Source: Leptospiria bacterium
Lineage (GTDB): Bacteria > Spirochaetota > Leptospiria > Turneriellales > CBDBES01
Length of the DNA stretch: 64,000 bases
Assembly: GCA_965261485.1 (NCBI GenBank)
Contig: CBDHCY010000005.1
Span: 1,484,901-1,548,900, forward strand
Direction: 5' to 3'
This document shows, piece after piece, positions 2,449-64,000 of this stretch; position 1 is the stretch's first letter; every line of letters begins with the position of its first letter. The position numbers and the translations under genes were made by a program. Below the pieces are notes generated by a model, which made no database searches, was not told the origin of the DNA, and saw only the letters and a program-made list of their open reading frames with translations.

Positions 2449-4475
2449 TTATAGTGGCGGCATTGGCTGATACTCATAAGCACCCATGTCAATGAGAGGG
2501 CCTGCACTAGCAGACTTGCCCTTTACAATACGAGGCTTGCCGGCTAGGTCTAGGGCACCTGCTGGGAATAAAGGCGTCCCAGTAGGCCCATTACTACCCG
2601 CATCAATCGCAGGTGAACCCATCATTAAACTTAAATCATCATCGAGCGTGCCAAAAACATTATCAACACCATCGGCGTCTGCAAACAGAAGGTCATCATC
2701 AGCAGCGTCAATGTTATTACCAGTATTACCAGAAGCACAACTATTAGACCCCGTCCACCAATCGGTACTCACAGTACTATCACTACAATCTTGAATCAGG
2801 CTGTGTGAAATAGTAACTGTATCAGCAGAATCTCGATTACAAAAATTCATATTACCTTGGGGACTGCCTCCAGTACAAGCCGTCGCTGTATTGTCCCACA
2901 TAATGACATTGATCAAAATAAGACCAGAAGCGGTATTTACCATACCGCCACCGCCACCATTACTAGTGGCTGTATTGCCTGAAAAAATAACATTATTCAA
3001 AGTTACATCAGTACCATTATTACGCATACCGCCACTAGAAAAATCAGCCTTATTACCTGAGAAAATAACATTACTCAAAATAAAACGAAGACCAGTAATA
3101 ATAAATAGACCGCCTCCAGCATCATTAGACTTATTACCTGAGAAAATAACATTACTCAATGTTAAATCATCACTAGCACTACTAAACATACCGCCGCCAC
3201 CAGTAGCACTGCCAGCACTCAAACCAGCAGCACGATTACCTGAGAAAATAATATTACTTAATATTAAATTATTACCCTGTAAATTATAAAGACCGCCGCC
3301 ATTCGATCTCACTTGACCAGTACCATTTGATTGACCAGCTGTAATCGTAAACCCGTCTAAAGTTGTATTAGCCGCCCCTGTAACAACCGTATAAACATTG
3401 TTACCCTTAATATCGCTAGTAACTGTGGTGCTACCAGTCATAACTCGATTGGTCGTTTCTGTAACGCCATCAGCATTAACCGTGTCATTATTATCAATGT
3501 CACCGCTGAGAATAGTTTTATTCACCCGCCAGTTACGCTCACTTAATAAAGTATCTGCGACATCAAAACCACCATAGACCTTGACATTTGATTTCAATTG
3601 AAAAGTAGCATCTCTTCTATCAGAAGTTGTAGACGTAGGCTTATAAATACCTTTAGCCACCACAATCTTATTAGTGCCTGCAGAAGATGTTAACGCTAAG
3701 TTTAGAGAGCTATAAGCATTCGACCAACTCGTGCCATCATCCGTGCCATTCGCAGCAGCATTCACAAAAATAATTTTATCAGAGCTTTTCGTTGCTTCGA
3801 TCTCAACACCCGCGGCGTAATTATGGCTTGCATCATAAGCGAAGATTTTATAATAGTAGGCGGTGTTTACCGTTGCGGCACTAACGCCGAAATCAGAAGA
3901 ATTAGCACTCTGCACCACCTCTGAGCCACCAATATCACCACCAACCGTATATTCTTCACCAGCACTAGGCACGTCTACTATTGAGCTTGTATTTCTTAAG
4001 ATTAAAACACCAGAGAAATCAGCATCTGTCGGGTTTGCCCAAACAATCACGTTTAAGTCTCCAAAAGTAGCACCACTCACCACGGCTGGTGCCTCTGTAT
4101 CTGTTGGATCAGAATTTGTTCCACCGGGATTTGTTCCGCCGGGATTCTTGCCACCGGGATCTGTTGGGTCAGGATTTTTCCCGCCGGGCTCTATTGGCAC
4201 AGCCGGATCTTTAGCATCGTCGGAGCAAGAGACGTTAAAGGCAAAAAAAATAAGGATTAATAATAAACCTTGAGTAACCTTGAGTAACCTTGAGTAACCT
4301 TGAGTAACCTTGAGTAACCTTGAGTAACCTTGAGTAACCTTGAGTAACCTTGAGTAACCTTGAGTAACCTTGAGTAACCTTGAGTAACCTTGAGTAACCT
4401 TGAGTAACCTTGAGTAACCTTGAGTAACCTTGAGTAACCTTTGTGAGTTGATTTAAGTGCTTTTAATAGTTTCAT
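2449..4475 (-). CDS. P1: phase-variable Pmp-like / choice-of-anchor-Q-like beta-helix surface lipoprotein; leader and body currently out of frame (OFF)
   Basis: Body ORF 2449-4200 (583 aa) plus leader ORF 4257-4475 (MKLLKALKSTHK followed by repeat-encoded GYSRLLKVTQ...). Body features: lipobox segment GLLLILIFFAFNVSC|SDDAKDP readable upstream in the body frame; Pro/Gly linker PGGKNPDPTDPGG; Fn3-like block (ADFSGVLILRNT...YYYKIFAYDASHNY); repeated LSNVIFSGNxA...GGG[LM] beta-helix units; C-terminal DADGVDN..SPAIDAGS..DLAGKPRIV..IDMGAYE. The frame breaks only at the 17-unit decamer tract. Confidence 0.8.
4268..4441 (-). repeat. decamer tract, 17 perfect copies of CCTTGAGTAA (coding strand TTACTCAAGG)
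   Basis: Counted directly: units run from 4268 to 4437, then a partial CCTT. The tract lies between the ATG (4475) and the lipobox codons. Confidence 0.95.
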
Positions 4476-4479
4476 GTCT

Positions 4480-4508
4480 TCTTATCGTACACAAGGATAA
4501 TCTGTCAA
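4480..4508 (-). promoter_or_regulatory. candidate sigma70-type promoter of P1 (TTGACA-17 nt-ATAAGA, then 4 nt to the ATG)
   Basis: Minus strand reads TTGACAgattatccttgtgtacgATAAGAagacATG. The -35 is at 4508-4503 and the -10 at 4485-4480. The same architecture is conserved upstream of all five decamer-bearing paralogs. No Shine-Dalgarno sequence is visible. Confidence 0.35.
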
Positions 4509-5522: not shown

Positions 5523-7446
5523 TTATAGTGGCGGCATTGGCTGAAACTCGTAAGCACCCATGTCAATGAGAGGGCCTGAACTAGCAGACTTGCCCTTTAC
5601 AATACGAGCCTTGCCGGCTAGGTCTAGGGCACCTGCTGGGAATAAAGGCGTCCCACTAGACCCATTACTACCCGCATCAATCGCAGGTGAAGTCGCCGTT
5701 AAACGTAAATCATCATCGAGCGTGCCAGCAACATTATCAACACCATCGGCGTCTGCAAACAGAGGGTCAGCGTCAATATTATTACCAGTATTACCAGAAG
5801 CACAACTATTAGCATGCCCTGATGCCCACCAATTGGTATCCGTGCTACAACCTTGAATCAGGCTGTGTGAAATAGTAACTATTCCAGAAGAACTGCCGTT
5901 GCAAAAATTAATATTACCTTTTGCTGTCCCTACAGGACAAGCTAGGGACATATTATCTGAAAAAATAACATTACTCAGTTTTAAACCAGTACCACTATTG
6001 AACAGACCGCCACCAACAGAATCAGACTTATTGCCTGAAAAAATAACGTTACTCAAAGTTGCATTAGTACTAGAATTAAAGAAACCGCCGCCAACAGTAA
6101 CAGCCCAATTGCCTGAGAAAATAACATTACTCAGTTTTAAACCAGTACCACCATTGAACAGACCGCCACCACCAAAACCGCCAGAACTATGATTACTGGC
6201 TGTATTGCCTGAGAAGATAACATTACTCAAAGTTAAATCCCCAGCAGCAGTATACATACCGCCGCCAGAATCGGCACTATTGCCTGAGAAGATAATATTA
6301 CTCAAAGTTAAATTATCACCACTACTATTATTATATATACCGCCACCAGAACTTCTACCACCACTAGAACCATTTGATAGACCAGCTGTAATCGTAAAGC
6401 CCTCTAAAGTTGTACCAGCCGCCCCTGTAACAACCGTATAAACATTGTTACCCTTAATATCGCTAGTAACTGTGGTGCTACCAGTCATAACTCGATTGGT
6501 CGTTTCTGTAACGCCATCAGCATTAACGATGTCATTATTATCAATGTCACCGCTGAGAATAGTTTTATTCACCAGCCAGTTACGCTCACTTAACGAGGCA
6601 TCTGCGACATCAAAACCACCATAGACCTTGACATTTGATTTCAATTGAAAAGTAGCACTTCTATCAGAAGTTGTAGACGTAGGCTTATAAACACCTTTAG
6701 CCACCACAATCTTATTAGTGACTGCAGAAGATGTTAACGCTGAGTTTAGAGAGCTATAAGCATTCGACCAACTCGTGCCATCACCCGTGCCACTCGCAGC
6801 AGCATTCACAAAAATAGTCTTATCAGAGCTTCTCGTTGCAGATATCTCAACACCCGCGGCGTAATTATGGCTTGCATCATAAGCGAAGATTTTATAATAG
6901 TAGGCGGTGTTTACCGTTGCGGCACTAACGCCGAAATCAGAAGAATTTGCACTCTGCACCACCTCTGAGCTACCAATATCACCACCAACCGTATATTCTT
7001 CACCAGCACTAGGCACGTCTACTATTGAGCTTGTATTTCTTAAGATTAAAACACCAGAGAAATCAGCATCTGTCGGGTTTGCCCAAACAATCACGTTTAA
7101 GTCTCCAAAAGTAGCACCACTCACCACGGCTGGTGCCTCTGTATCTGTTGAGACAGGAGTCGTTGGCATATTCGGATTTGTTCCGCCGGGATCTGTTGGG
7201 TCAGGGTTCTTTCCGCCGGGCTCTATTGGCACAGCCGGATCTTTAGCATCGTCAGAGCAAGAGACGTTAAAGGCAAAAAAAATAAGGATTAATAATAAAC
7301 CTTGAGTAACCTTGAGTAACCTTGAGTAACCTTGAGTAACCTTGAGTAACCTTGAGTAACCTTGAGTAACCTTGAGTAACCTTGAGTAACCTTGAGTAAC
7401 CTTGAGTAACCTTTTGAGTTGATTTAAGTGCTTTTAATAGTTTCAT
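5523..7446 (-). CDS. P2: phase-variable beta-helix surface lipoprotein paralog, currently OFF
   Basis: Body ORF 5523-7232 (569 aa) has the same architecture as P1. The ATG at 7446-7444 (MKLLKALKSTQK) is separated from the lipobox by an 11-unit decamer tract and is out of frame with the body. Confidence 0.8.
7300..7413 (-). repeat. decamer tract, 11 perfect copies of CCTTGAGTAA
   Basis: Counted directly: units run from 7300 to 7409, followed by CCTTTTGAG. Confidence 0.95.
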
Positions 7447-7534: not shown

Positions 7535-8469
7535 AAATTCAAAGTTAAATTGAGGTTCAGCCTACTTTTTTATTGTGATAGTGGCGGCATTGCCTGAAAC
7601 CCATAAACACCCATCAAATTCAAATTCAAATTGACAATTAAAAATGGAAAATTAAAAGTTCAGCCTACTTTTTTATTGTTATAGTGGCGGCATTGCCTGA
7701 AACCCATAAACACCCATCAAATTCAAATTCAAATTGACAATTGAAAATAGAAAATTGAGGTTCAGCCTACCTTTTTATTATGATAGTGGCGGCATTGCCT
7801 GAAACCCATAAACACCCATCAAATTCAAATTCAAATTGACAATTGAAAATAGAAAATTGAGGTTCAGCCTACCTTTTTATTATGATAGTGGCGGCATTGG
7901 CTGAGCTTCATAAGCACCCATCAAATTGAAAGTTGAAATTGACAATTGAAAGTGGAAAATTAAAAATTCAGCCTACCTTTTTATTGTTATAGTGGCGGCA
8001 TTGCCTGAAACCCATAAACACCCATCAAATTCAAATTCAAATTCAAATTCAAATTGAAAGTTGAAAATGGAAAATTAAAAGTTCAGCCTACTTTTTTATT
8101 GTGATAGTGGCGGCATTGCCTGAAACCCATAAACACCCATCAAATTCAAATTAAAATTGACAATTGAAAGTGGAAAATTGAGGTTCAGCCTACCTTTTTA
8201 TTGTGATAGTGGCGGCATTGGCTGAGCTTCATAAGCACCTATCAAATTGAAAGTTGAAAGTGGAAAATTGAGGTTCAGCCTACTTTTTTATTGTTATAGT
8301 GGCGGCATTGGCTGAGCTTCATAAACACCCATCAAATTCAAATTCAAATTCAAATTGAAAATGGAAAATTGAGGTTCAGCCTACTTTTTATTGTTATAGT
8401 GGCGGCATTGGCTGAGCTTCATAAGCACCCACCAAATTGACAATTGAGGTTCAGCCTACCTTTTTATTG
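7535..8469 (-). repeat. 3'-tail cassette array A3 (9 extra units) between the P3 stop and the P2 promoter
   Basis: Nine copies of ATAGTGGCGGCATTG[GC]CTGA... precede the true P3 end at 8470. There are two tail alleles (GAGCTTCATAAGCACCC and GAAACCCATAAACACCC) and one hybrid (GAGCTTCATAAACACCC, about 8310). Confidence 0.9.
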
Positions 8470-10471
8470 TTATAGTGGCGGCATTGGCTGAAACTCGTAA
8501 GCACCCATGTCAATGAGAGGGCCTGCACTAGCAGACTTGCCCTTTACAATACGAGGCTTGCCGGCTAGGTCTAGGGCACCTGCTGGGAATAAAGGCGTCC
8601 CACTAGACCCATTACTACCCGCATCAATCGCAGGTGAACCCATCATTAAACTTAAATCATCATCGAGCGTGCCAAAAACATTATCAACACCATCAGCGTC
8701 TGCAAACAGAGGGTCAGCGTCAATGTTATTACCAGTATTACCAGAAGCACAACTATTAGCATGCGTTGATGCCCACCAATTGGTATCCGTGCTACAACCT
8801 TGAATCAGGCTGTGTGAAATAGTAACTGTTCCAGTAGAACTGCTGTTGCAAAAATTCATATTACCTTTTGTTGTCCCTACAGGACAATCTGAGGACATAT
8901 TATCTGAAAAAATAACATTACTCAGTTTTAAACCAGCACCACCATTAAACAGACCGCCACCAGCAGAATCAGACTTATTGCCTAAAAAAGTAACGTTACT
9001 CAAAGTTACATCCTCACCACCATTACGCATACCCCCACCAACAATCTTAGACTTATTGCCTGAGAAAATAACATTACTCAAAATTAAATCCTCACCACCA
9101 TTATTAGAGAACCCGCCGCCGCCCAAAAGGCCAGAACCATGATTACTGGCTGTATTGCCTGAAAAAATAACATTACTCAAAGTCATATTCATACCACCAC
9201 TATTATACATACCGCCGCCAGAATCGGCTAGATTGCCTGAGAAGATAATATTACTCAAAGTTACATTAGCACTACTACCACCATCATTATACAGACCGCC
9301 GCCAGCTGCAGCACTACTACTAGAACCATTTGATAGACCAGCTGTAATCGTAAAGCCCTCTAAAGTTGTATTAGACGCCCCTGTAACAACCGTATAAACA
9401 TTGTTACCCTTAATATCGCTAGTAACTGTGGTGCTACCAGTCATAACTCGATTGGTCGTTTCTGTAACGCCATCAGCATTAACCGTGTCATTATTATCAA
9501 TGTCACCGCTGAGAATAGTTTTATTCACCAGCCAGTTACGCTCACTTAATAAAGTATCTGCGACATCAAAACCACCATAGACCTTGACATTTGATTTCAA
9601 TTGAAAAGTAGCATTTCTCCCAGGAGTTGAAGACGTAGGCGTAGGCTTATAAATACCTTTAGCCACCACAATCTTATTAGTACCTGCAGAAGATGTTAAC
9701 GCTAAGTTTAGAGAGCTATAAGCATTCGACCAACTCGTGCCATCACCTGTACCACTCGCAGCAGCATTCACAAAAATAGTCTTATCAGAACTTTCTCTCG
9801 TTGCTTCGATCTCAACACCCGCGGCATAATTATGGCTTGCATCATAAGCGAAGATTTTATAATAGTAGGCGGTGCCTGCCGTTGTGGCACTAACGCCGAA
9901 ATCAGAAGAATTAGCACTCTGCACCACCTCTGAGCTACCAATATCACCACCAACCGTATATTCTACACCAGCACTAGGCACGTCTGCTATTGAGACTGTG
10001 TTTCTTAAGATTAAAACCCCAGAGAAATCAGCATCTGTCGGGTTTGCCCAAACAATCACGTTTAAGTCTCCAAAAGTAGCACCACTCACCCCAGCTGGTG
10101 CCTCTGTATCTGTTGGATCAGGAATCAACCCGCCGGGATTTTTCCCACTGGGATCTGTTGGGTCAGGGTTCTTTCCGCCGGGCTCTATTGGCACAGCCGG
10201 ATCTTTAGCATCGTCAGAGCAAGAGACGTTAAAGGCAAAAAAAATAAGGATTAATAATAAACCTTGAGTAACCTTGAGTAACCTTGAGTAACCTTGAGTA
10301 ACCTTGAGTAACCTTGAGTAACCTTGAGTAACCTTGAGTAACCTTGAGTAACCTTGAGTAACCTTGAGTAACCTTGAGTAACCTTGAGTAACCTTGAGTA
10401 ACCTTGAGTAACCTTTGAGTAACCTTTGAGTAACCTTTGTGAGTTGATTTAAGTGCTTTTAATAGTTTCAT
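8470..10471 (-). CDS. P3: phase-variable beta-helix surface lipoprotein paralog, currently OFF
   Basis: Body ORF 8470-10194 (574 aa) plus leader ORF 10229-10471 (MKLLKALKSTHKGYSKVTQRLLKV...). The leader frame ends in ...FIINPYFFCL*, which is the lipobox region read in the wrong frame. Confidence 0.8.
10262..10436 (-). repeat. decamer tract, 15 perfect copies plus two 11-bp variants (CCTTTGAGTAA)
   Basis: Counted directly: perfect units run from 10262 to 10411, with variant units at 10412-10433. Confidence 0.95.
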
Positions 10472-15824: not shown

Positions 15825-15873
15825 ATAAAATACTTGCTTTGGGGTAATTGTTGTCGCTACCTCTACCCAACAA

Positions 15874-16315
15874 GCAAGGCACCACTCGTAACTGGCGGTC
15901 AACCACTCTCGCCCAAGCGAGCAAGGCACCACTCGTAACTGTTGGTCAACCACTCTCGCCCAGCGAGCAAGGCACCACTCGTAACTGGCGGTCAACCACT
16001 CTCGCCCAAGCGAGCAAGGCACCACTCGTAACTGGCGGTCAACCACTCTCGCCCAAGCGAGCAAGGCACCACTCGTAACTGTTGGTCAACCACTCTCGCC
16101 CAGCGAGCAAGGCACCACTCGTAACTGGCGGTCAACCACTCTCGCCCAAGCGAGCAAGGCACCACTCGCAACTGGCGGTCAACCACTCTCGCCCAGCGAG
16201 CAAGGTACCACTCGTAACTGGCGGTCAACCACTCTCGCCCAAGCGAGCAAGGCACCACTCGCAACTGGCGGTCAACCACTCTCGCCCAGCGAGCAAGGCA
16301 CCACTCGTAACTGTT
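15874..16315. repeat. GC-rich 46/47-bp tandem minisatellite (9 full units plus a partial unit)
   Basis: The unit is GCAAGGCACCACTCGTAACTGGCGGTCAACCACTCTCGCCCAAGCGA. Unit starts are at 15874, 15921, 15967, 16014, 16061, 16107, 16154, 16200, 16247 and 16293, giving lengths 47, 46, 47, 47, 46, 47, 46, 47 and 46. The array fills the convergent gap between murA and the 1150-aa surface protein gene. Confidence 0.9.
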
Positions 16316-49982: not shown

Positions 49983-50192
49983 CAAATGGAGGTTCAGCCT
50001 ACCTTTTTATTGTTATAGCGGTGGCATTGCCTGAAACTCATAAACACCCATCAAATTCAAATTGAAAGTTGAAAATGGAAAATTGAGGTTCAGCCTACTT
50101 TTTATTGTTATAGCGGCGGCATTGGCTGAGCTTCATAAGCACCCATCAAATTGAAAGTTGAAAATGGAAAATTGAAGGTTCAGATTACTTTT
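49983..50192 (-). repeat. 3'-tail cassette array A4 (2 units) downstream of P4
   Basis: Units at about 50012 (TATAGCGGTGGCATTGCCTGAAACTCATAAACACCC) and about 50108 (TATAGCGGCGGCATTGGCTGAGCTTCATAAGCACCC). Confidence 0.85.
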
Positions 50193-52122
50193 TTATTGAC
50201 TTTCGTAAGCACCCATATCTATGCTACTGCCTACAATACGAGCCTTGCCTGCTAGGTCGGTGGCACCTGCTGGGAATAAAGGCATCCCAGGAGGCCCATT
50301 ACTACCCGCATCAATCGCAGGTGAAGTCGCCATTAAACGTAAATCGTCATCAAACAGAGGGTCAGCGTCAATATTATTACCACCATCGCCATTATTGCCA
50401 GTGCTATCATCACCGTCATTATCGTCGCCACAACTACTAGTGCCCATTGCCCAAGTGGAACCACTAGCACCACAACCTTGAATCAAGCTGTGTGAAATAT
50501 TAATTATCCTATTATTAGTAGACGATCTGTTACTGCAAATATTCTGATTACCTCGGAAACTCCCTCCAGTACAAGTGCCCGCTGTATTGCCCCACATAAT
50601 GACATTAGTCAAGGTGACGGTATTTTCATTTTGAAAAAAAGCAGCTCCCCCAGCATCAGTAGCCGTATTATTTGAAAAGACAACATTATTTAAAGTGAAA
50701 TTAACAGCCGCCCTATCACTCTGCAGACCGCCACCATTAACATCAGACGTATTATCTGAAAAGACAACATTCTCTAAAATTCCATCATACCCCTCATTAT
50801 ACAGACCGCCGCCGCCCAGCCTAAAGCCGTTTGGGTCAACGCTTGCATTGCCTGAAAAAAAAACATTACTTAAATTAATAGTACTACCAACACTAGAAGA
50901 TAGTAATAGACCACCGCCACCATTAGCCGTATTACCGAAGAAAATAATATTACTCAAAGTTACATTATCATTATTTACATTACGCATACCGCCACCAAAA
51001 GCATTCCTTGGCACATTAATATCAGAACCATTTGATTGACCAGCTGTAATCGTAAAGCCCTCTAAAGTTGTATTAGACGCCCCTATAACAACCGTATAAC
51101 TATTACTACCCACAATGTGACTAGCATTTTCTATAATGCCATCATCATTAGAATCAGTATCGTCACCACCAATGTCACCGCTGAGAATAGTTTTATTCAC
51201 CCGCCAGTTACGCTGACTCAATGAATGCTCTGTACCCACGAAACCACCATAGACCTTGACCTTTGATACCAATTGAAAAGTAGCATTTCTATCAGAAGTT
51301 GTAGACGTAGGCTTATAAACACCTTTAGCCACCACAATCTTATTAGTGGCTACAGAAGATGTTAACGCTGAGTTTAGAGAGCTATAAGCATTCGACCAAC
51401 TCGTGCCATCACCCGTACCACTAGCAGCAGCATTCACAAAAATAATTTTACCTGATCGTCTTGTTGCTTCAATCTCAACACCCGCAGCGTAATTATGGCT
51501 TGCATCATAAGCAAAAATTTTATAATAGTAAGAAGTGCCTACCGTTGCGGTACTAACGCCGAAATCAGAAGAATTTGCACTCTGCACCACCTCTGAGCTA
51601 TCAATATCATCACCAACCGTATATTCTGTACCAGCACTAGGGGCGTCTACTATTGAGACTGTGTTTCTTAAGATTAAAACACCAGAGAAATCAGCATCCG
51701 CTGGGTTCATCCAAGTGATTACATTTAATAAGTCTCCAAAAGCAACGCCACTCACCACAGCTGGTGGCTCTGTATCTGTTGGATCAGGAATCGTTGGCAT
51801 ATTCGGATTTGTTCCGCCGGGATTCTTTCCACCGGGATTTGTTGGGTCAGGATTTTTCCCACTGGGCTCTATTGGCACAGCCGGACCTTTAGCATCGTCA
51901 GAGCAAGAGACGTTAAAGGCAAAAAAAATAAGGATTAATAATAAACCTTGAGTAACCTTGAGTAACCTTGAGTAACCTTGAGTAACCTTGAGTAACCTTG
52001 AGTAACCTTGAGTAACCTTGAGTAACCTTGAGTAACCTTGAGTAACCTTGAGTAACCTTGAGTAACCTTGAGTAACCTTGAGTAACCTTTTGAGTTGATT
52101 TAAGTGCTTTTAATAGTTTCAT
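50193..52122 (-). CDS. P4: phase-variable beta-helix surface lipoprotein paralog, currently OFF
   Basis: Body ORF 50193-51878 (561 aa, ends IDMGAYESQ*) plus leader ORF 51913-52122 (MKLLKALKSTQKVTQGYSRLLKV...FIINPYFFCL*). Confidence 0.8.
51946..52089 (-). repeat. decamer tract, 14 perfect copies of CCTTGAGTAA
   Basis: Counted directly: units run from 51946 to 52085, followed by CCTTTTGAG. Confidence 0.95.
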
Positions 52123-52212: not shown

Positions 52213-52422
52213 AAATTCAAATGGAGGTTCAGCCTACTTTTTTATTGTTATAGTGGCGGCATTGGCAGAGCTTCATAAAGCATCCACCAAATTCAAATCG
52301 AAAGTGGAAAATTGAGAGTTCAGCCTACTTTTTTATTGTTATAGCGGTGGCATTGGCTGAGCTTCATAAGCACCCATCAAATTCAAATTGAAAATTGAAA
52401 ATGGAAGGTTCAGATTACTTTT
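52213..52422 (-). repeat. 3'-tail cassette array A5 (2 units) downstream of P5
   Basis: Units at about 52248 and about 52342 (TATAGTGGCGGCATTGGCAGAGCTTCATAAAGCATCC and TATAGCGGTGGCATTGGCTGAGCTTCATAAGCACCC). Confidence 0.85.
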
Positions 52423-54315
52423 TTATTGACTTTCGTAAGCACCCATATCTATGCTATTGCCTACAATACGAGCCTTGCCTGCTAGGTCTAGGGCACCAGT
52501 TGCGAATAAAGGCATTCCAGTAGGCCCATTACTACCCGCATCAATCGCGGGTGAACCCGCCTTTAAACGTAAACCATCATCGGCCGTACCAAAAATATTA
52601 TCAGCACCATTGGGGTCATCAGCGTCTGCAAACAGAGGGTTATTACTATCAATATTATTACCAGTATTACCAGAAGCACAACTATTAGCATGCGTTGATG
52701 CCCACCAATTGGTATCCGTGCTACAACCTTGAATCAGGCTGTGTGAAATAGTAACTGCAACAAGCATACCGCCGCTACAAAAATTAGCATTACCTTTGGC
52801 ACTGTTTCCAGTACAAGCCATCGCCGTATTGCCCCACATAATGACATTAGTCAAAGTAAGATCAGCAGAAGCATTTGACAGACCGCCACCAGTAGTACCA
52901 GACTCATTGCCTGAGAAAATAACATTACTCAAAGTTAAACGAGGACTAGCATTACGCATACCGCCACCAAAAACAGCAGACTTATTGTCTGAGAAAATAA
53001 TATTACTCAAAGTTAAACTGAAATCAGAACTAGACAAACCGCCGCCACCAAAAGAGCTAACACGCTGATTACTGGCTGTATTGCCCGAGAAAATAATATT
53101 ACTCAAAATTAAATTCCTACCAACATTGTACATACCGCCGCCAGAATCGGCTGTATTGCCTGAGAAAATAATATTACTCAAAATTAAATTATCACTAGAA
53201 CTATGCATACCGCCCCCCAGAATAACGACACCAATACCCCTACTGGCATTTGATTGACCAGCTGTAATCGTAAAGCCCTCTAAAGTTGTATCACCCGCCC
53301 CTGTAACAACCGTATAACTATTACTACCATTAATATCGCTAGTAGCTGTGGTGCTACCAGAACTAACTCGATTGGTCGTTTCTGTAACGCCATCAGCATT
53401 AACCGTGTCATTATTATCAATGTCACCGCTGAGAATAGTTTTATTCATCCGCCAGTTACGCTCACTTAATAAAGTATCTGCGACATCAAAACCACCATAG
53501 ACCTTGACCCCTGATATCAATTGAAAAGTAGCACTTCTATCAGAAACTGAAGGTGGAGACACTAAAGGCATCGCAAGTGTAGTAGGCTTATAAACACCTT
53601 TAGCCACCACAATTTTATCACCAGTGGTGGCGACGACTCCTTCAGCAGGAGGTTTTAACACCGACCGTAGATCGCTATAAGCATTCGACCAACTCGTGCC
53701 ATCACCCGTACCACTAGCAGCAGCATTCACAAAAATAGTCTTATCAGAACTTTTTGTTGCTTCGATCTCAACACCCGCGGCGTAATTATGGCTTGCATCA
53801 TATGCGAAGATTTTATAATAGTAAGAAGTGCCCATCGTTGCGGCACTAACGCCGAAATCAGAAGAATTTGCACTCTGCACCACCTCTGAGCTACCAATAT
53901 CACCACCAACCGTATATTCTTTACCAACACTAGGAGCGTCGTCTGTTATTGAGACTGTATTTCTTAAGATTAAAACCCCAGAGAAATCAGCATCTGTCGG
54001 GTTTGCCCAAACAATCACGTTTAAGTCTCCAAAAGTAGCACCACTCACCACAGCTGGTGGCTCTGTATCTGTTGGATCAGGAATCGTTGGCATATTCGGA
54101 TTTGTTCCGCCGGGATTCTTTCCACCGGGATCTGTTGGGTCAGGGTTCTTTCCGCCGGGCTGTGTTGGCACAGCCGGATCTTTAGCATCGTCAGAGCAAG
54201 AGACGTTAAAGGCAAAAAAAATAAGGATTAATAATAAACCTTGAGTAACCTTGAGTAACCTTGAGTAACCTTGAGTAACCTTTTGAGTTGATTTAAGTGC
54301 TTTTAATAGTTTCAT
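52423..54315 (-). CDS. P5: beta-helix surface lipoprotein paralog, intact and in frame (ON)
   Basis: Single 630-aa ORF: MKLLKALKSTQKVTQGYSRLLKVTQG-LLLILIFFAFNVSC|SDDAKDPAVPTQPGGKNPDP..., followed by the Fn3-like block, FSGN/GGG repeats and a C-terminal ...IDMGAYESQ*. The decamer tract has 4 units. Confidence 0.88.
   Translation of the reverse strand: MKLLKALKSTQKVTQGYSRLLKVTQGLLLILIFFAFNVSCSDDAKDPAVPTQPGGKNPDPTDPGGKNPGGTNPNMPTIPDPTDTEPPAVVSGATFGDLNVIVWANPTDADFSGVLILRNTVSITDDAPSVGKEYTVGGDIGSSEVVQSANSSDFGVSAATMGTSYYYKIFAYDASHNYAAGVEIEATKSSDKTIFVNAAASGTGDGTSWSNAYSDLRSVLKPPAEGVVATTGDKIVVAKGVYKPTTLAMPLVSPPSVSDRSATFQLISGVKVYGGFDVADTLLSERNWRMNKTILSGDIDNNDTVNADGVTETTNRVSSGSTTATSDINGSNSYTVVTGAGDTTLEGFTITAGQSNASRGIGVVILGGGMHSSSDNLILSNIIFSGNTADSGGGMYNVGRNLILSNIIFSGNTASNQRVSSFGGGGLSSSDFSLTLSNIIFSDNKSAVFGGGMRNASPRLTLSNVIFSGNESGTTGGGLSNASADLTLTNVIMWGNTAMACTGNSAKGNANFCSGGMLVAVTISHSLIQGCSTDTNWWASTHANSCASGNTGNNIDSNNPLFADADDPNGADNIFGTADDGLRLKAGSPAIDAGSNGPTGMPLFATGALDLAGKARIVGNSIDMGAYESQ
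54239..54282 (-). repeat. decamer tract, 4 perfect copies of CCTTGAGTAA
   Basis: Counted directly: units run from 54239 to 54278, followed by CCTTTTGAG. Confidence 0.95.
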
Positions 54316-54547: not shown

Positions 54548-56656
54548 TTATTGACTTTCGTAAGCACCCATATCTATGCTACTGCCTACAATACGAGGGT
54601 TGCCGGCTAGGTCTAGGGCACCAGTTACGAATAAAACTTTCGTATTATCACTAGGATCAACATTACTACCCGCATCAATCGCGGGTGAACCCGCCCTTAA
54701 ACGTAAATCGTCATCAAACAGAGGGTCAGCGTCAATGTTATTACCACCATCAGTGCCGCATCTACTGAGATTAGTTGCTGAGCTCCAAATGGAAGAACCA
54801 CTAACACCACAATCTTGAATCAAGCTATGTGAAATAGTAGGCTGTACATTGAAGGTGCAAAAATTAACATTACCCTTAAAATTGTCTCCAGTACAAGCAG
54901 CCCCTGTATTGCCCCACATAATGACATTGGTCAAGATAGCAACAGCACTTCCAGTATTTTTGCGAATTTGACTTCCTCCACCTACATTAGTAGCTGTATT
55001 GTTTGAAAAAACAACATTAGTCAAGGTTAAATTAGCATCAACACTTTGTATACCGCCACCAAAACTGGCCATATTGCCTGAAAAAGCAACATTGGTTAAA
55101 ATAGCACCACCACCACGAATAGTAAGACCACCTCCACCCAAAATAGTAGCTGTATTGTTTGAAAAAACAATATTAGTTAAGGTTAAATTATCACTACCCT
55201 TAGCATAAAAACCGCCACCAACATTGGCTGCATTGCCTGAAAAAGTAATATTAGTTAAAGTTAAATTATGATTATCTATATTATACACGCCACCACCCCT
55301 ATTAATATAATTACCGGTACCTGCAGGAGCATTTGATTGACCAGCTGTAATCGTAAAACCGTCTAGAATGGCATCGCTCGCCCCTGTAACAACTGTATAA
55401 CTATTATTAGCGATTACAGTCATCATACCACCAGCATCCACCATTTCGGTACCCTTAATGTCATCAGCATTTTCTATAATGCCATCACGATTAGAATCAG
55501 TATCGTCACCACCAATGTCACCGCTGAGAATAGTTTTATTCACCCGCCAGTTACGCTCACTTAACGAGGCATCTGCGACATCAAAACCACCATAGACCTT
55601 GACATTTGATATCAATTGAAAGGTAGCATTTCTCCCAAGAGTTGAAAGTGTAGACCTAGGCTTATAAATACCTTTAGCCACCACAATCTGAACTGGTAGA
55701 GTCTCAGTCGCATCATCAGCTATTTTAGATTCTAACGCTGAGTTTAGGGAGCTGTAAGCATTCGACCAACTCGTGCCATCACCCGTGCCACTCGCAGCAA
55801 CATTCACAAAAATAATTTTATCAGAGATTTTCGTTGCAGAGATCTCAAAACCTGTGGCATAGTTACGGTTTGTATCATAAGTGAAGATTTTATAATAATA
55901 CTTTTTATAACGGTAAGGAATATTTTCTCCATCCTGTTCCCTTATATCTGTGAGGTCAAAGTCAAGAGATTTTGCATCGTGCACCACCTCTGAGGCACCA
56001 ATTGAAACACCAACCGTATATTCTTTACCAGCACTAGGGGCGTCTACTATTGAGCTTGTATTTCTTAAAATTAAAACTTTAGAGAAATCAGCATCTGTTG
56101 GGTTTAACCAAGTGATTTTGTTCGTGAAATCACTAAAAGTAACATCGCTCACCTCAGCTGGTGGCACTGTATCTGTCGGATTGGTTTTTGTCGAACCAGG
56201 TGTTTTGTAGTCAGCCAGTGCTGGTATATATTTATTAACCTTAGTCTGAACACCGTTGTTGTAGTAGAGATAAGTGTCACAGACAAAGATTTTATAAAAA
56301 TAAACGACATCCTCTACAACTTCTGTGTCTCTAAAAGTTGGTGCGGCTGCGTTATAGGCTACCCGTGAGGCTCCCATTGCGGTGAAGACAGGATAATCTC
56401 GCCAAGGTCTAGGAAAACCTTGGATAGCACTTGTATTCTTTAAGATTAGAACCTTATTGTAGATGTTACGGCCTCTACTCGCAGGATTCTTCCATGCTAG
56501 GGTTATCCCGCTTGAATTACGATTAACGGTAAGATCTGTGACTTCTGGTAGAGGGTCATCCAACCCATTCAAAAAATATGCACGACCAATTTTAGTGCAA
56601 TGCAGGAAAATCAGTAGGAAAAAAAAACTTATAAAAAATAGAAATCTTGAGTTCAT
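54548..56656 (-). CDS. P6: beta-helix surface protein paralog, long form with a duplicated Fn3-like domain and no decamer switch
   Basis: 702-aa intact ORF. It has a different signal peptide (MNSRFLFFISFFFLLIFLHC), two Fn3-like modules (…VYFYKIFVCDTYLYY and …YYYKIFTYDTNRNY), TLTN[IV]xFSxNxA..GGG repeats, and ends IDMGAYESQ*. Confidence 0.85.
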   Translation of the reverse strand: MNSRFLFFISFFFLLIFLHCTKIGRAYFLNGLDDPLPEVTDLTVNRNSSGITLAWKNPASRGRNIYNKVLILKNTSAIQGFPRPWRDYPVFTAMGASRVAYNAAAPTFRDTEVVEDVVYFYKIFVCDTYLYYNNGVQTKVNKYIPALADYKTPGSTKTNPTDTVPPAEVSDVTFSDFTNKITWLNPTDADFSKVLILRNTSSIVDAPSAGKEYTVGVSIGASEVVHDAKSLDFDLTDIREQDGENIPYRYKKYYYKIFTYDTNRNYATGFEISATKISDKIIFVNVAASGTGDGTSWSNAYSSLNSALESKIADDATETLPVQIVVAKGIYKPRSTLSTLGRNATFQLISNVKVYGGFDVADASLSERNWRVNKTILSGDIGGDDTDSNRDGIIENADDIKGTEMVDAGGMMTVIANNSYTVVTGASDAILDGFTITAGQSNAPAGTGNYINRGGGVYNIDNHNLTLTNITFSGNAANVGGGFYAKGSDNLTLTNIVFSNNTATILGGGGLTIRGGGAILTNVAFSGNMASFGGGIQSVDANLTLTNVVFSNNTATNVGGGSQIRKNTGSAVAILTNVIMWGNTGAACTGDNFKGNVNFCTFNVQPTISHSLIQDCGVSGSSIWSSATNLSRCGTDGGNNIDADPLFDDDLRLRAGSPAIDAGSNVDPSDNTKVLFVTGALDLAGNPRIVGSSIDMGAYESQ

Positions 56657-56846
56657 TTAAAGTTTTTAATAGACTTATACTCTCTATAAGCACAATCATC
56701 GTAGACTAAAATAGCCGGTCAAGAAAAAATATTTTTTTGATAATTTATGAATACCTTGGAATTTAAAGACATCTAATTAAAATAGTAATACCATTACTGG
56801 TTTATATAATAAAAAAATTATCTAAATCTACAGTTTGGTGGTATTA

Positions 56847-62084: not shown

Positions 62085-64000
62085 TTATTGGCCTTCATAA
62101 GCACCCATATCTATGCGATCGTTTACAATACGAGGGTTGCCGGCTAGGTCGGTGGTTATCTCAGCGGGTAGCCCACCATTGTCGGCCGTACTACCCACAT
62201 CAATCGCAGGTGAACCCGTATTTAAACGTAAATTGTCATCAAGCGTACCAACAACATTATCAGCACCATCGGCGTCTACAAACATTGGATAATTAGCATA
62301 ACCAGCAGCTGTCGGGTCACCATCAATATTATTACCACCATCGCCATTATTGCCAGTGCTATCATCACCATCATTATCGTCGCCACAACTGCTAACACCC
62401 GTTGCCCAAGTGGAACCACTAACACCACAACCTTGAATCAAGCTGTGTGAAATATTAATTGTCCTGGTATCACCAGACAATTTGCTACTGCAAATATTCT
62501 GATTACCTCGGGAATTCGCTCCAGTACAAGTGCCCGCTGTATTGCCCCACATAATGACATTGATCAAGATAATACTTCCAGCTCCATAAATACTACTTCC
62601 TCCACCTCCATCAGCAGTAGCTGTATTGTTTGAAAAAACAACATTAGTCAAGGTTAAATTAGCATGAGTACTCCGTGTACCGCCACCAAAAGGGGCCATA
62701 TTGCCTGAAAAAGCAACATTGGTTAAAATAGCACTACTACGAAAATTAGTAAGACCACCACCACCTAGATTGGAAGCAGTGTTCCCAAAAAAAAGAATAT
62801 TAGTTAATATTAAATTATTACTATTTCTACTATACACACCGCCGCCACCACCGGCTGCATTGCCTGAAAAAGTAATATTAGTTAAGGTTAAATTATGATT
62901 ATCTATATTATACACGCCACCACCCCTATTAGTATGGTTAAAGGTACCAGTAGGACCATTTGATTGACCAGCTGTAATCGTAAAACCATCTAAAATGGCA
63001 TCACTCGCCCCTGTAACAACTGTATAACTATTATTAGCGATTACAGTCATCATACCACCAGCATCCGCCATTTCGGTACCCTTAATGTCATCAGCATTTT
63101 CTGTAACGCCGGCAGCATTAACAGTGTCGTCACCACCAAGATCACCGCTTAAAATGGGTTTGTTCACCCGCCAGTTACGCTCACTTAATGAGGTCTCTGT
63201 ACCACTAAAACCACCATAGACCCTGACATGTGATATCAATTGAAAAGTAGCATCTCGATCAGAAACTAAAGACGTAGGCTTGTAAACACCTGCAGCCACC
63301 ACAATTTGAACTGGTAGAGCCGAGGTCGCGGCAGTGGCTGTAGAAGATGTTAACGCTGAGCTTAAATCGCTAAAAGCATTCGACCAACTCGTGCCATCAC
63401 TCGAACCACTCGCACCACCCGCAGCATTAACAAAAATAGTCTTATTAGTATTTTTCGTTGCAGAGATTTCAACACCCGCGGCATAATTACGGCTTGCATC
63501 ATAAGCGAAGATTTTATAAAAATAAAGAGTGCCCGCCGTTGCCGCTCTAACGCTGAAATCAGGAGAATTGGCATTGTACACCACCCGTGAAGTACCAATT
63601 GAAGCATCAACTATATATTCTTCACCAGCACTAGGGCCATCTATTATTGAGATTGTATCTCTTAAGATTAAAACCTTAGAGAAATCAGCATCCGCTGGGT
63701 TTATCCAAGTAATTACATTTAATAAGTCTCTAAAAGTAACATCGCTCACCTCAGCTGGTGATTGTGTATCAGCTGGTGGTGGTATATATTTATTAACCTT
63801 AGTCTGAACGCCGAAATTGTAATAAAGATAAGTGTCAGAGACAAAGACTTTATAAAAATAAACGACATCCTCTACAACTTCTGTGTCTCTAAAAGTTGGT
63901 GCGGCTGCGTTATAGACTACCCGTGAGACTCCCATTGTGGTGGAGACAGGATAATCTCGCCAATGTTTAGGAAAATCTTGGATAGCACTTGTATTCTTTA
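62085..64000 (-). CDS. P7: beta-helix surface protein paralog (long form like P6); the N-terminus lies beyond the window end
   Basis: ORF track 62085-63935. The frame stays open to 64000: hand translation gives ...KNTSAIQDFPKHWRDYPVSTTMGVS, parallel to P6 KNTSAIQGFPRPWRDYPVFTAMGAS. Ends IDMGAYEGQ*. Confidence 0.85.
   Translation of the reverse strand, partial: KNTSAIQDFPKHWRDYPVSTTMGVSRVVYNAAAPTFRDTEVVEDVVYFYKVFVSDTYLYYNFGVQTKVNKYIPPPADTQSPAEVSDVTFRDLLNVITWINPADADFSKVLILRDTISIIDGPSAGEEYIVDASIGTSRVVYNANSPDFSVRAATAGTLYFYKIFAYDASRNYAAGVEISATKNTNKTIFVNAAGGASGSSDGTSWSNAFSDLSSALTSSTATAATSALPVQIVVAAGVYKPTSLVSDRDATFQLISHVRVYGGFSGTETSLSERNWRVNKPILSGDLGGDDTVNAAGVTENADDIKGTEMADAGGMMTVIANNSYTVVTGASDAILDGFTITAGQSNGPTGTFNHTNRGGGVYNIDNHNLTLTNITFSGNAAGGGGGVYSRNSNNLILTNILFFGNTASNLGGGGLTNFRSSAILTNVAFSGNMAPFGGGTRSTHANLTLTNVVFSNNTATADGGGGSSIYGAGSIILINVIMWGNTAGTCTGANSRGNQNICSSKLSGDTRTINISHSLIQGCGVSGSTWATGVSSCGDDNDGDDSTGNNGDGGNNIDGDPTAAGYANYPMFVDADGADNVVGTLDDNLRLNTGSPAIDVGSTADNGGLPAEITTDLAGNPRIVNDRIDMGAYEGQ

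Follow-up and report, generated by a model that had tools for sequence, protein, structure and literature searches.

A decanucleotide repeat in the leaders of a gene family for putative beta-helix lipoproteins: candidate Opa-type contingency loci in an uncultured spirochaete

A 64,000-nt stretch of DNA from an uncultured spirochaete, Leptospiria bacterium (assembly GCA_965261485.1, contig CBDHCY010000005.1, positions 1,484,901 to 1,548,900; hereafter the window), carries five paralogous genes, P1 to P5, in which a tandem array of the decamer TTACTCAAGG occupies an identical position in the leader, between the start codon and the lipobox. The array is in frame with the downstream body only in P5, which has four units; the other four genes are out of frame (OFF) and have intact bodies. 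We consider it likely, from the comparison of these genes with one another and with those of related strains, that the family is controlled by slipped-strand contingency switches of the type known from the Neisseria opa genes, one switch per gene.

P1, like P2 to P5, lies on the minus strand. Its start codon (ATG, 4475-4473) opens a 38-nt prefix (4438-4475) encoding MKLLKALKSTHK, which is followed by 17 perfect head-to-tail decamers, (TTACTCAAGG)17, at 4268-4437. Tandem Repeats Finder reports 17.6 copies with a 100% match at 4266-4441. The initial annotation had described 17 perfect decamers between this ATG and the lipobox, and its coordinates prove exact to the base. The ATG frame ends after 72 codons at a TAA (4257-4259) and yields a peptide of 72 residues. 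The body frame begins with GGT at 4269-4267 (GGT TTA TTA TTA ATC ...), where it encodes GLLLILIFFAFNVSC, and stays open for 606 codons up to its stop (2451-2449), so that the body spans 2449-4269. The codons for the hydrophobic core and the lipobox, GLLLILIFFAFNVS-C, lie at 4225-4269, with the Cys codon at 4227-4225. Called mechanically from its first in-frame GTG (4200), the same frame gives the intact open reading frame (ORF) of 583 amino acids (2449-4200) reported in the initial annotation. In the body, a Pro-rich linker is followed by a conserved N-terminal domain, a right-handed beta-helix and a C-terminus of the choice-of-anchor Q type.

In P1, 206 nt separate the ATG from the first codon of the body, that is 2 modulo 3, and the gene would therefore be in frame with 18 units (one more) or with 15 (two fewer). 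This agrees with the earlier hand count, according to which gain of one unit restores the frame and a paralog of 37+40 nt, namely P5, is in frame. All three frames of the array are free of stop codons and of ATG, GTG and TTG. The P1 body frame likewise offers none of these three start codons from its upstream stop to the GTG at 4200; the OFF state therefore gives no protein bearing a signal peptide. An alternative start codon in the body frame could be excluded, as none is present upstream of the body or inside the array. A plus-strand gene spanning the array was also excluded, the reverse complement having TAA and TGA in every unit. The absence of stops from the array, noted earlier, is correct, although about 40% of random decamers of the same composition are stop-free in all frames, and we dropped it as evidence by itself. 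The decamer occurs 61 times in the window, always on the minus strand and within one of the five arrays, and such arrays cannot arise by chance.

The four other arrays have different lengths. P2 (5523-7446, ATG 7446) has 11 units at 7300-7409 and an intact body of 592 codons. In P3 (8470-10471, ATG 10471) two 11-nt variant units (10412-10433) precede 15 perfect ones (10262-10411), and the intact body has 597 codons. P4 (50193-52122, ATG 52122) carries 14 units at 51946-52085 in front of an intact body of 584 codons. All three are OFF, as is P1. P5 (52423-54315, ATG 54315), with 4 units at 54239-54278, is ON and forms a continuous ORF of 630 amino acids with the leader MKLLKALKSTQKVTQGYSRLLKVTQGLLLILIFFAFNVSC. 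The prefix measures 37 nt in P2, P4 and P5 and 38 nt in P1 and P3 (one extra C). The in-frame geometry of P5 is thus a 37-nt prefix plus 40 nt of repeat, with an ATG-to-body distance of 75 nt.

Tract length also differs between strains. The window was compared with four contigs of the same species (L001, L035, L036 and L037) from the ENA metagenome ERZ26693861, which are consensus assemblies at 3-4x coverage. The flanks of L001, L035 and L036 are 96.5-98.9% identical to the window; L037 aligns only inside the paralog genes. Three family genes occupy the RNase R-sucA locus of the window (a tract-less one, one ON with 4 units and one OFF with 14); in L001 the locus holds one gene of 675 amino acids, in frame with 10 units, and in L035 one gene, in frame with 1 unit and with the leader MKLLKTLKFTQGLLLILIFFAFNVSC. 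At the gpsA-priA locus, where the window has P3, P2 and P1, L036 has a single out-of-frame gene with 8 units; the orthology between the upstream flank of this gene and that of P3 is clear. The comparison of related strains proposed in the initial annotation thus shows that the tract is not invariant at orthologous loci (1, 8 and 10 units). Over paralogs and close strains together, tract lengths change by whole units (1, 4, 8, 10, 11, 14, 15 and 17). The in-frame alleles, of 1, 4 and 10 units, are shorter than the out-of-frame ones, of 8-17 (one-sided Mann-Whitney p=0.036, n=3 versus 5), which hints that very long leaders may be tolerated mainly when silent.

Two further features of these loci were observed. 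Family copy number at both RNase R-sucA and gpsA-priA is three in the window and one in the strains with 97-99% identical flanks. The paralogs are also mosaic, the L001 gene matching P5 at 96% identity in the first 700 nt and diverging thereafter. In L037, an eight-G run (GATAGGGGGGGGTATG) is found between a -10-like element and the ATG of two adjacent tract-less paralogs (1527-1542 and 3632-3647); it could be a homopolymer switch of the type found at the tpr genes of Treponema pallidum, or a read error at 4x.

The bodies of the OFF copies appear to be maintained. In pairwise nucleotide alignments of the five bodies, made without codon constraint, each pair differs by 6-17 gaps, every one a multiple of three, and by 152-389 mismatches, and no copy contains a stop codon. 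About 2.85% of random substitutions in these bodies would create a stop; the neutral probability of finding none ranges from ~0.012 for the closest pair to ~1e-5 for the most distant. A search for additional inactivating lesions in the P1 body, also proposed earlier, found none, and differences that break the frame between the window copies are confined to the tract and to the degenerate sequence at its 5' edge. The ratio of non-synonymous to synonymous substitution rates (dN/dS) rises from 0.33 for leader plus linker to 0.52 for the N-terminal domain and reaches 0.8-1.07 in the variable beta-helix. This distribution points to purifying selection at the N-terminus, with relaxed or diversifying selection in the centre, rather than to uniform neutral decay.

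Promoter, ATG and leader are near-identical across all eight copies examined. An upstream block, GTGTACGA(T/C)A(A/G)G, shows little or no variation across the eight aligned copies, whether ON or OFF. In P1, a -35-like hexamer TTGACA (4503-4508), read directly from the sequence, is followed after 16 nt by the best -10-like hexamer, GATAAG (4481-4486), which ends 5 nt short of the ATG. TTGACA is kept in seven of the eight aligned upstream regions, the sole departure being TTGACC in L001. The promoter consensus scanner requires a T at hexamer position 6, and GATAAG, which lacks it, is consequently unlisted. No Shine-Dalgarno sequence is present at a suitable spacing before the P1 ATG; this, together with the proximity of the -10-like site to the ATG, suggests that the P1 mRNA would be leaderless or nearly so. 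The protein leader, by inspection, reads MKLLKALKSTQK...GLLLILIFFAF-NVS-C, then SDDAKDP, with the lipobox FNVS-C; P5 and the paralogs of L001 and L035 have this leader in frame. The in-frame signal peptides have 26, 40 and 60 residues for 1, 4 and 10 units, respectively.

We propose that slipped-strand mispairing at replication, and possibly unequal exchange between copies, would add or remove decamer units. DNA fold prediction found no secondary structure in the single-stranded tract; hairpin-assisted slippage is therefore unsupported, and the strands would simply pair out of register. Loops of 10 nt exceed those that bacterial MutS is known to recognise, and mismatch repair is therefore unlikely to suppress such slippage. 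The tracts are pure, and it is in this state that repeats mutate most readily (PMC3899988). Because 10 is not divisible by three, and because the tract has neither a stop nor a start codon in any frame, the number of units decides the frame only; it alone would set whether a ribosome starting at the ATG meets the lipobox and the body in frame. In the ON state, the lipoprotein would be made, its signal-peptide n-region extended by repeat-encoded KVTQGYSRLL modules, each with a charge of +2. Signal peptidase II would presumably cut at the lipobox Cys and remove the repeat-encoded region, and the mature protein would therefore be the same at any tract length. In the OFF state, translation would halt 3-10 codons past the tract and leave a peptide of 59-80 amino acids. 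With paralogs flipping independently and reversibly, a population would show many combinations of the variable beta-helix proteins. The slipped-strand frame switch had been put forward in the initial annotation, and every prediction that could be tested at the sequence level was borne out: the tract recurs in five paralogs, its length differs between strains and the bodies are constrained.

Several observations nevertheless weigh against this interpretation. Only one of the five tract-bearing window copies is ON. Four further paralogs outside the window (P0007, P0010, P0013 and P0014) have gene calls that begin at an internal start just past the leader, which suggests that they are also OFF. 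Such a mostly silent family also fits slow decay, and the central dN/dS of 0.8-1.07 is also compatible with relaxed constraint. In the L036 copy, single nucleotides appear to have been inserted into a 15-nt repeat within the Pro-rich linker (640-720); these insertions break the body frame and, at 3x coverage, may be real decay or read error. The lipobox FNVSC deviates from the Escherichia coli consensus L-[AS]-[GA]-C; the looser spirochaetal lipobox accommodates it. An ON allele of P1, with 15 or 18 units, would have an n-region of ~60-70 residues, and very long tracts may lead to poor export even when in frame. As all tract lengths were taken from consensus assemblies, heterogeneity within the population and reversibility of the switch remain inferred.

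Several of these observations could be explained if the OFF copies, P1 included, were pseudogenes of a recently expanded family and the array a selfish or neutral satellite, the lengths of which do not constitute a switch. Four of the five tract-bearing window copies out of frame, four further paralogs truncated N-terminally in the gene calls, the high central dN/dS and the extra frame breaks in L036 would all fit, as would the strain differences in copy number, which are those of dispensable genes. We consider this quite improbable, given that the body indels are all multiples of three, that hundreds of substitutions have produced no stop, that dN/dS is 0.33-0.52 in the N-terminal parts, that promoter, start codon and leader are kept in every copy, that frame-breaking differences are confined to the tract or its degenerate edge, and that the same tract is in frame in P5, L001 and L035. 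It is even harder to believe that the assembled tract lengths were miscounted, through collapse, expansion or the consensus of a mixed population, and that the ON/OFF pattern is an artefact of genes that may all be in frame in vivo. Tandem arrays are prone to assembly error, the related contigs at 3-4x have probable homopolymer errors, and a heterogeneous population would make any consensus a snapshot. However, the arrays measure 40-170 bp, well within single long reads; they show perfect regularity, their flanks are clean and unique, and the contig that carries them is 2.13 Mb long. All five arrays would need to have been miscounted independently, each by a number of units that is not a multiple of three, and a mixed consensus would itself favour the switch.

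The repeat could also serve mainly as an in-frame tuner of signal-peptide length, affecting the efficiency or timing of export as a rheostat rather than as a binary switch. In-frame alleles of 1, 4 and 10 units do exist and tend to be shorter than the out-of-frame ones, but two-thirds of the length changes made with a 10-nt unit break the frame, in a selected tuner one would expect a unit length divisible by three, and most of the alleles observed are out of frame. Tuning can add to an ON/OFF switch and not replace it, and as the main role of the repeat it seems to us very improbable. Even with the pseudogene family, the assembly artefact and the in-frame tuner taken together, it is unlikely that the explanation is to be found among them, and the Opa-type slipped-strand switch is the interpretation that we favour.

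The origin of the tract is visible in members of the family that lack it. Tract-less leaders read ...TCA ACT CAA GGT TAC TTA TTA... and contain a proto-repeat, ACTCAAGGTTACT, with ACT recurring 10 nt apart. Leaders with one unit or without a tract (MKLLKTLKFTQGLLLIL..., MNLLKTLKSTQGYLLIL...) show the ancestral state, the array having arisen from a single-copy leader of this kind; such leaders survive in sister genes and strains. The first duplication would have taken a single slippage event between the ACT microhomologies 10 nt apart. One of the two tract-less members in the window, of 702 amino acids (54548-56656), has a different lipoprotein-like leader, and the position of the old leader is degenerate. 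Its region (54548-56790) retains a degenerate family promoter and leader (…CTATTAAAAACTTTAAATGAACTCAAG…), with a new ATG inside the old leader followed by a different signal peptide, MNSRFLFFISFFFLLIFLHC; this paralog looks like a locked-ON derivative. The second tract-less member starts at 62085 and runs past the end of the window. A protein search found at least six further paralogs beyond the window on the same 2.13-Mb contig. One of these, P0011, has an ordinary 26-residue leader without the repeat.

The family may be described as choice-of-anchor Q beta-helix proteins that are putative surface lipoproteins. The C-terminal choice-of-anchor Q profile of NCBIfam, NF041518 (curated cut-off 25 bits), matches P5 with 38.2 bits, P1 with 29.3 and the 702-residue paralog with 38.4, and the bodies carry GGG.../NVIFSGN repeats. 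The AlphaFold model is a right-handed parallel beta-helix, confident only for residues 190-540. Its PDB matches are weak (E 3.5e-3 or worse) and comprise tailspikes, pectin methylesterases and polygalacturonases; they indicate the fold class only and imply no enzymatic function. A Pfam scan of P1 and P5 gave no match, including none to an Opa or OMP (outer-membrane protein) domain. Chlam_PMP (PF02415) reached 16.6 bits with the 702-residue paralog, below its cut-off of 20.6, and is precomputed only for P0008 and distant homologues. The family proteins end in GAYE... and have no autotransporter barrel domain.

Close family members (at least 47% identity) are confined to the host species, and remoter beta-helix homologues are widespread in other phyla. 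Three tandem decamer units had no match in 185,579 GTDB species genomes. Two units were found at 33 loci in JGI metagenomes, all of them chance occurrences or unrelated repeats and none with the leader. A scan of the GTDB genomes with a family profile gave only distant homologues from other phyla (at most 34% identity), none with a leader repeat, and a protein search with the OFF-state peptide gave no match. A distant beta-helix homologue in a Ferruginibacter sp. metagenome-assembled genome (Bacteroidota; JASGIL010000001.1, our contig L055) has an (ATTGTCC)16 array (2675-2786) ~130 nt upstream of its start codon; within the same protein superfamily, this array may represent an independent repeat switch at the promoter level.

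The CTCTT repeats of the Neisseria opa genes, to which the initial annotation had likened the tract, are an apt comparison; they lie in the region coding for the leader peptide and switch at ~1e-3 per generation (PMC3960869). Both have a pure repeat, with a unit length not divisible by three, placed after the start codon and before the signal-peptide cleavage site. Both are multigene families in which every copy has, or here would have, a switch of its own; the residues encoded by the repeat leave, or here would leave, with the signal peptide, and the mature parts are variable and mosaic (PMC3960869, PMC3899988). The unit is 5 nt long in opa and 10 nt here, and the Opa proteins are 8-stranded beta-barrels, whereas a beta-helix lipoprotein is predicted here; there is no homology, and the design of the switch alone is alike. 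In addition, the opa repeat encodes the hydrophobic core, whereas the decamer encodes the charged n-region. Switching was measured in Neisseria, whereas here it is inferred from the sequence of an uncultured spirochaete.

Paralogous surface-protein genes are frame-switched in their 5' coding region also in Helicobacter pylori, where CT dinucleotide repeats lie in the signal-peptide region of the OMP genes oipA, hopZ and babB; there, as here, the ON/OFF state differs by strain. The sabA gene also has a CT dinucleotide repeat (PMC4081817). These genes differ from the present family in the dinucleotide unit, in encoding beta-barrel OMPs and in belonging to a well-studied pathogen. In Chlamydia pneumoniae, some members of the pmp family, paralogous beta-helix surface proteins with GGxx/FxxN-type repeats, are frame-switched by poly-G. 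The likeness lies in paralogous beta-helix surface proteins, some of them switched by frameshifts at simple sequence repeats (SSRs), but the Pmp proteins are autotransporters with a C-terminal barrel, unlike the choice-of-anchor Q lipoproteins predicted here, and their SSR is a homopolymer. SSR phase variation is documented for the tpr genes of T. pallidum (PMC7864442). These genes carry homopolymeric G tracts upstream, which act on transcription; to our knowledge, no other case is well documented among spirochaetes. They too form a paralogous surface-antigen family, but their switch is transcriptional and does not act on the frame, and both the proteins and the spirochaete order are unrelated to those described here.

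Repeats with long units inside ORFs are known from Haemophilus influenzae, which has heptanucleotide SSRs, (AATTTTG)14 in hmw1a and (AACAACC)8-13 in an HI1369 homologue, and in which hmw genes are preceded by upstream repeats of octa- and nonanucleotide units (PMC2651432). As in the spirochaete, these long in-ORF units are found in surface-protein genes and their strain-variable counts shift the frame (PMC2651432); there too, switching was deduced from genome comparison only. The H. influenzae cases are, however, single loci with 7-nt units, and the hmw1a tract lies 3.5 kb inside its ORF. Phase variation is driven by units of 1-5 nt, and units of 6-9 nt are rarely reported (PMC4692102). The remark of the initial annotation that a decamer is unusual holds in this light, and our full-text literature search on decanucleotide repeats in phase variation found no precedent, returning only a screening criterion. 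Long SSRs with units of 5-11 nt are scattered among bacteria according to surveys (2007, as summarised in PMC4679880). Literature searches on phase variation in Leptospira and on choice-of-anchor Q found nothing relevant. A frame switch made of a leader repeat is thus known, and its mechanism is neither new nor surprising to a specialist; the novelty lies in the 10-nt unit, in the lineage and in the protein family.

Nearly all known SSR contingency loci come from cultured, host-adapted pathogens, with units of 1-5 nt and rarely of 7-8. The same design would have arisen independently in an uncultured spirochaete lineage without described phase variation, and with a unit that represents the upper limit of a simple sequence repeat. 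Annotation pipelines would call such genes N-terminally truncated or pseudogenes; in P1 the start was placed at the internal GTG. Long-read metagenomes could be mined for switches of this kind. The beta-helix choice-of-anchor Q lipoproteins are candidate variable surface antigens or adhesins of the host lineage.

A second repeat accompanies the family. The last ~40 nt of the paralog coding sequence (...GAYEYQPMPPL and the stop codon) and ~50 nt of the 3' flank are tandemly amplified downstream of every paralog. The array between P2 and P1 (4576-5560) has ~10 copies, and others lie at 2210-2484, 7547-8507, 49984-50198, 52219-52428 and about 62010, all on the minus strand. The tail motif CAGCCAATGCCGCCACTAT occurs 29 times, as 3 true gene ends and 26 extragenic copies. 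Tail arrays are also present in L001 and L036, and a comparable array in L037 is made of the tail found there (...GAYESQ and the stop codon). They could be recombination anchors, elements of the repetitive extragenic palindromic (REP) type or terminators.

A more far-reaching speculation may be added. The family could be the first set of contingency loci in the Leptospirales branch and the first to use a unit of 10 nt, which mismatch repair probably fails to see, residing on a probably leaderless mRNA and maybe coupled to recombination; in this full form the proposal is tentative and we would not rely on it. The conserved 5' leaders and the 3'-end tandem arrays (up to 10 copies) would then anchor the shuffling of hypervariable beta-helix cassettes. 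If so, combinatorial phase variation would be combined with antigenic variation, and this small-genome (2.13 Mb) uncultured spirochaete would be under strong fluctuating selection directed at its surface by a host, phages or predators.

The window is chromosomal, with ~30% G+C, and the paralogs have ~40%. It encodes BamA, ProS, MurA, DapA, DapB, HisF, RNase R and SucA; the best named relatives of its ProS are from Spirochaetia, Leptospiraceae and Turneriella metagenome-assembled genomes, at 50-56% identity, and other relatives reach 70%. The host is therefore a spirochaete that probably belongs to the order Leptospirales. Rfam and tRNA scans of the window were empty. Another repeat, a G+C-rich 47-bp unit present 9.6 times in tandem (15866-16313), lies between the convergent murA and the gene for a 1150-residue GLUG-motif protein. 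It has no Rfam match, contains stops in all frames and appears to be non-coding.

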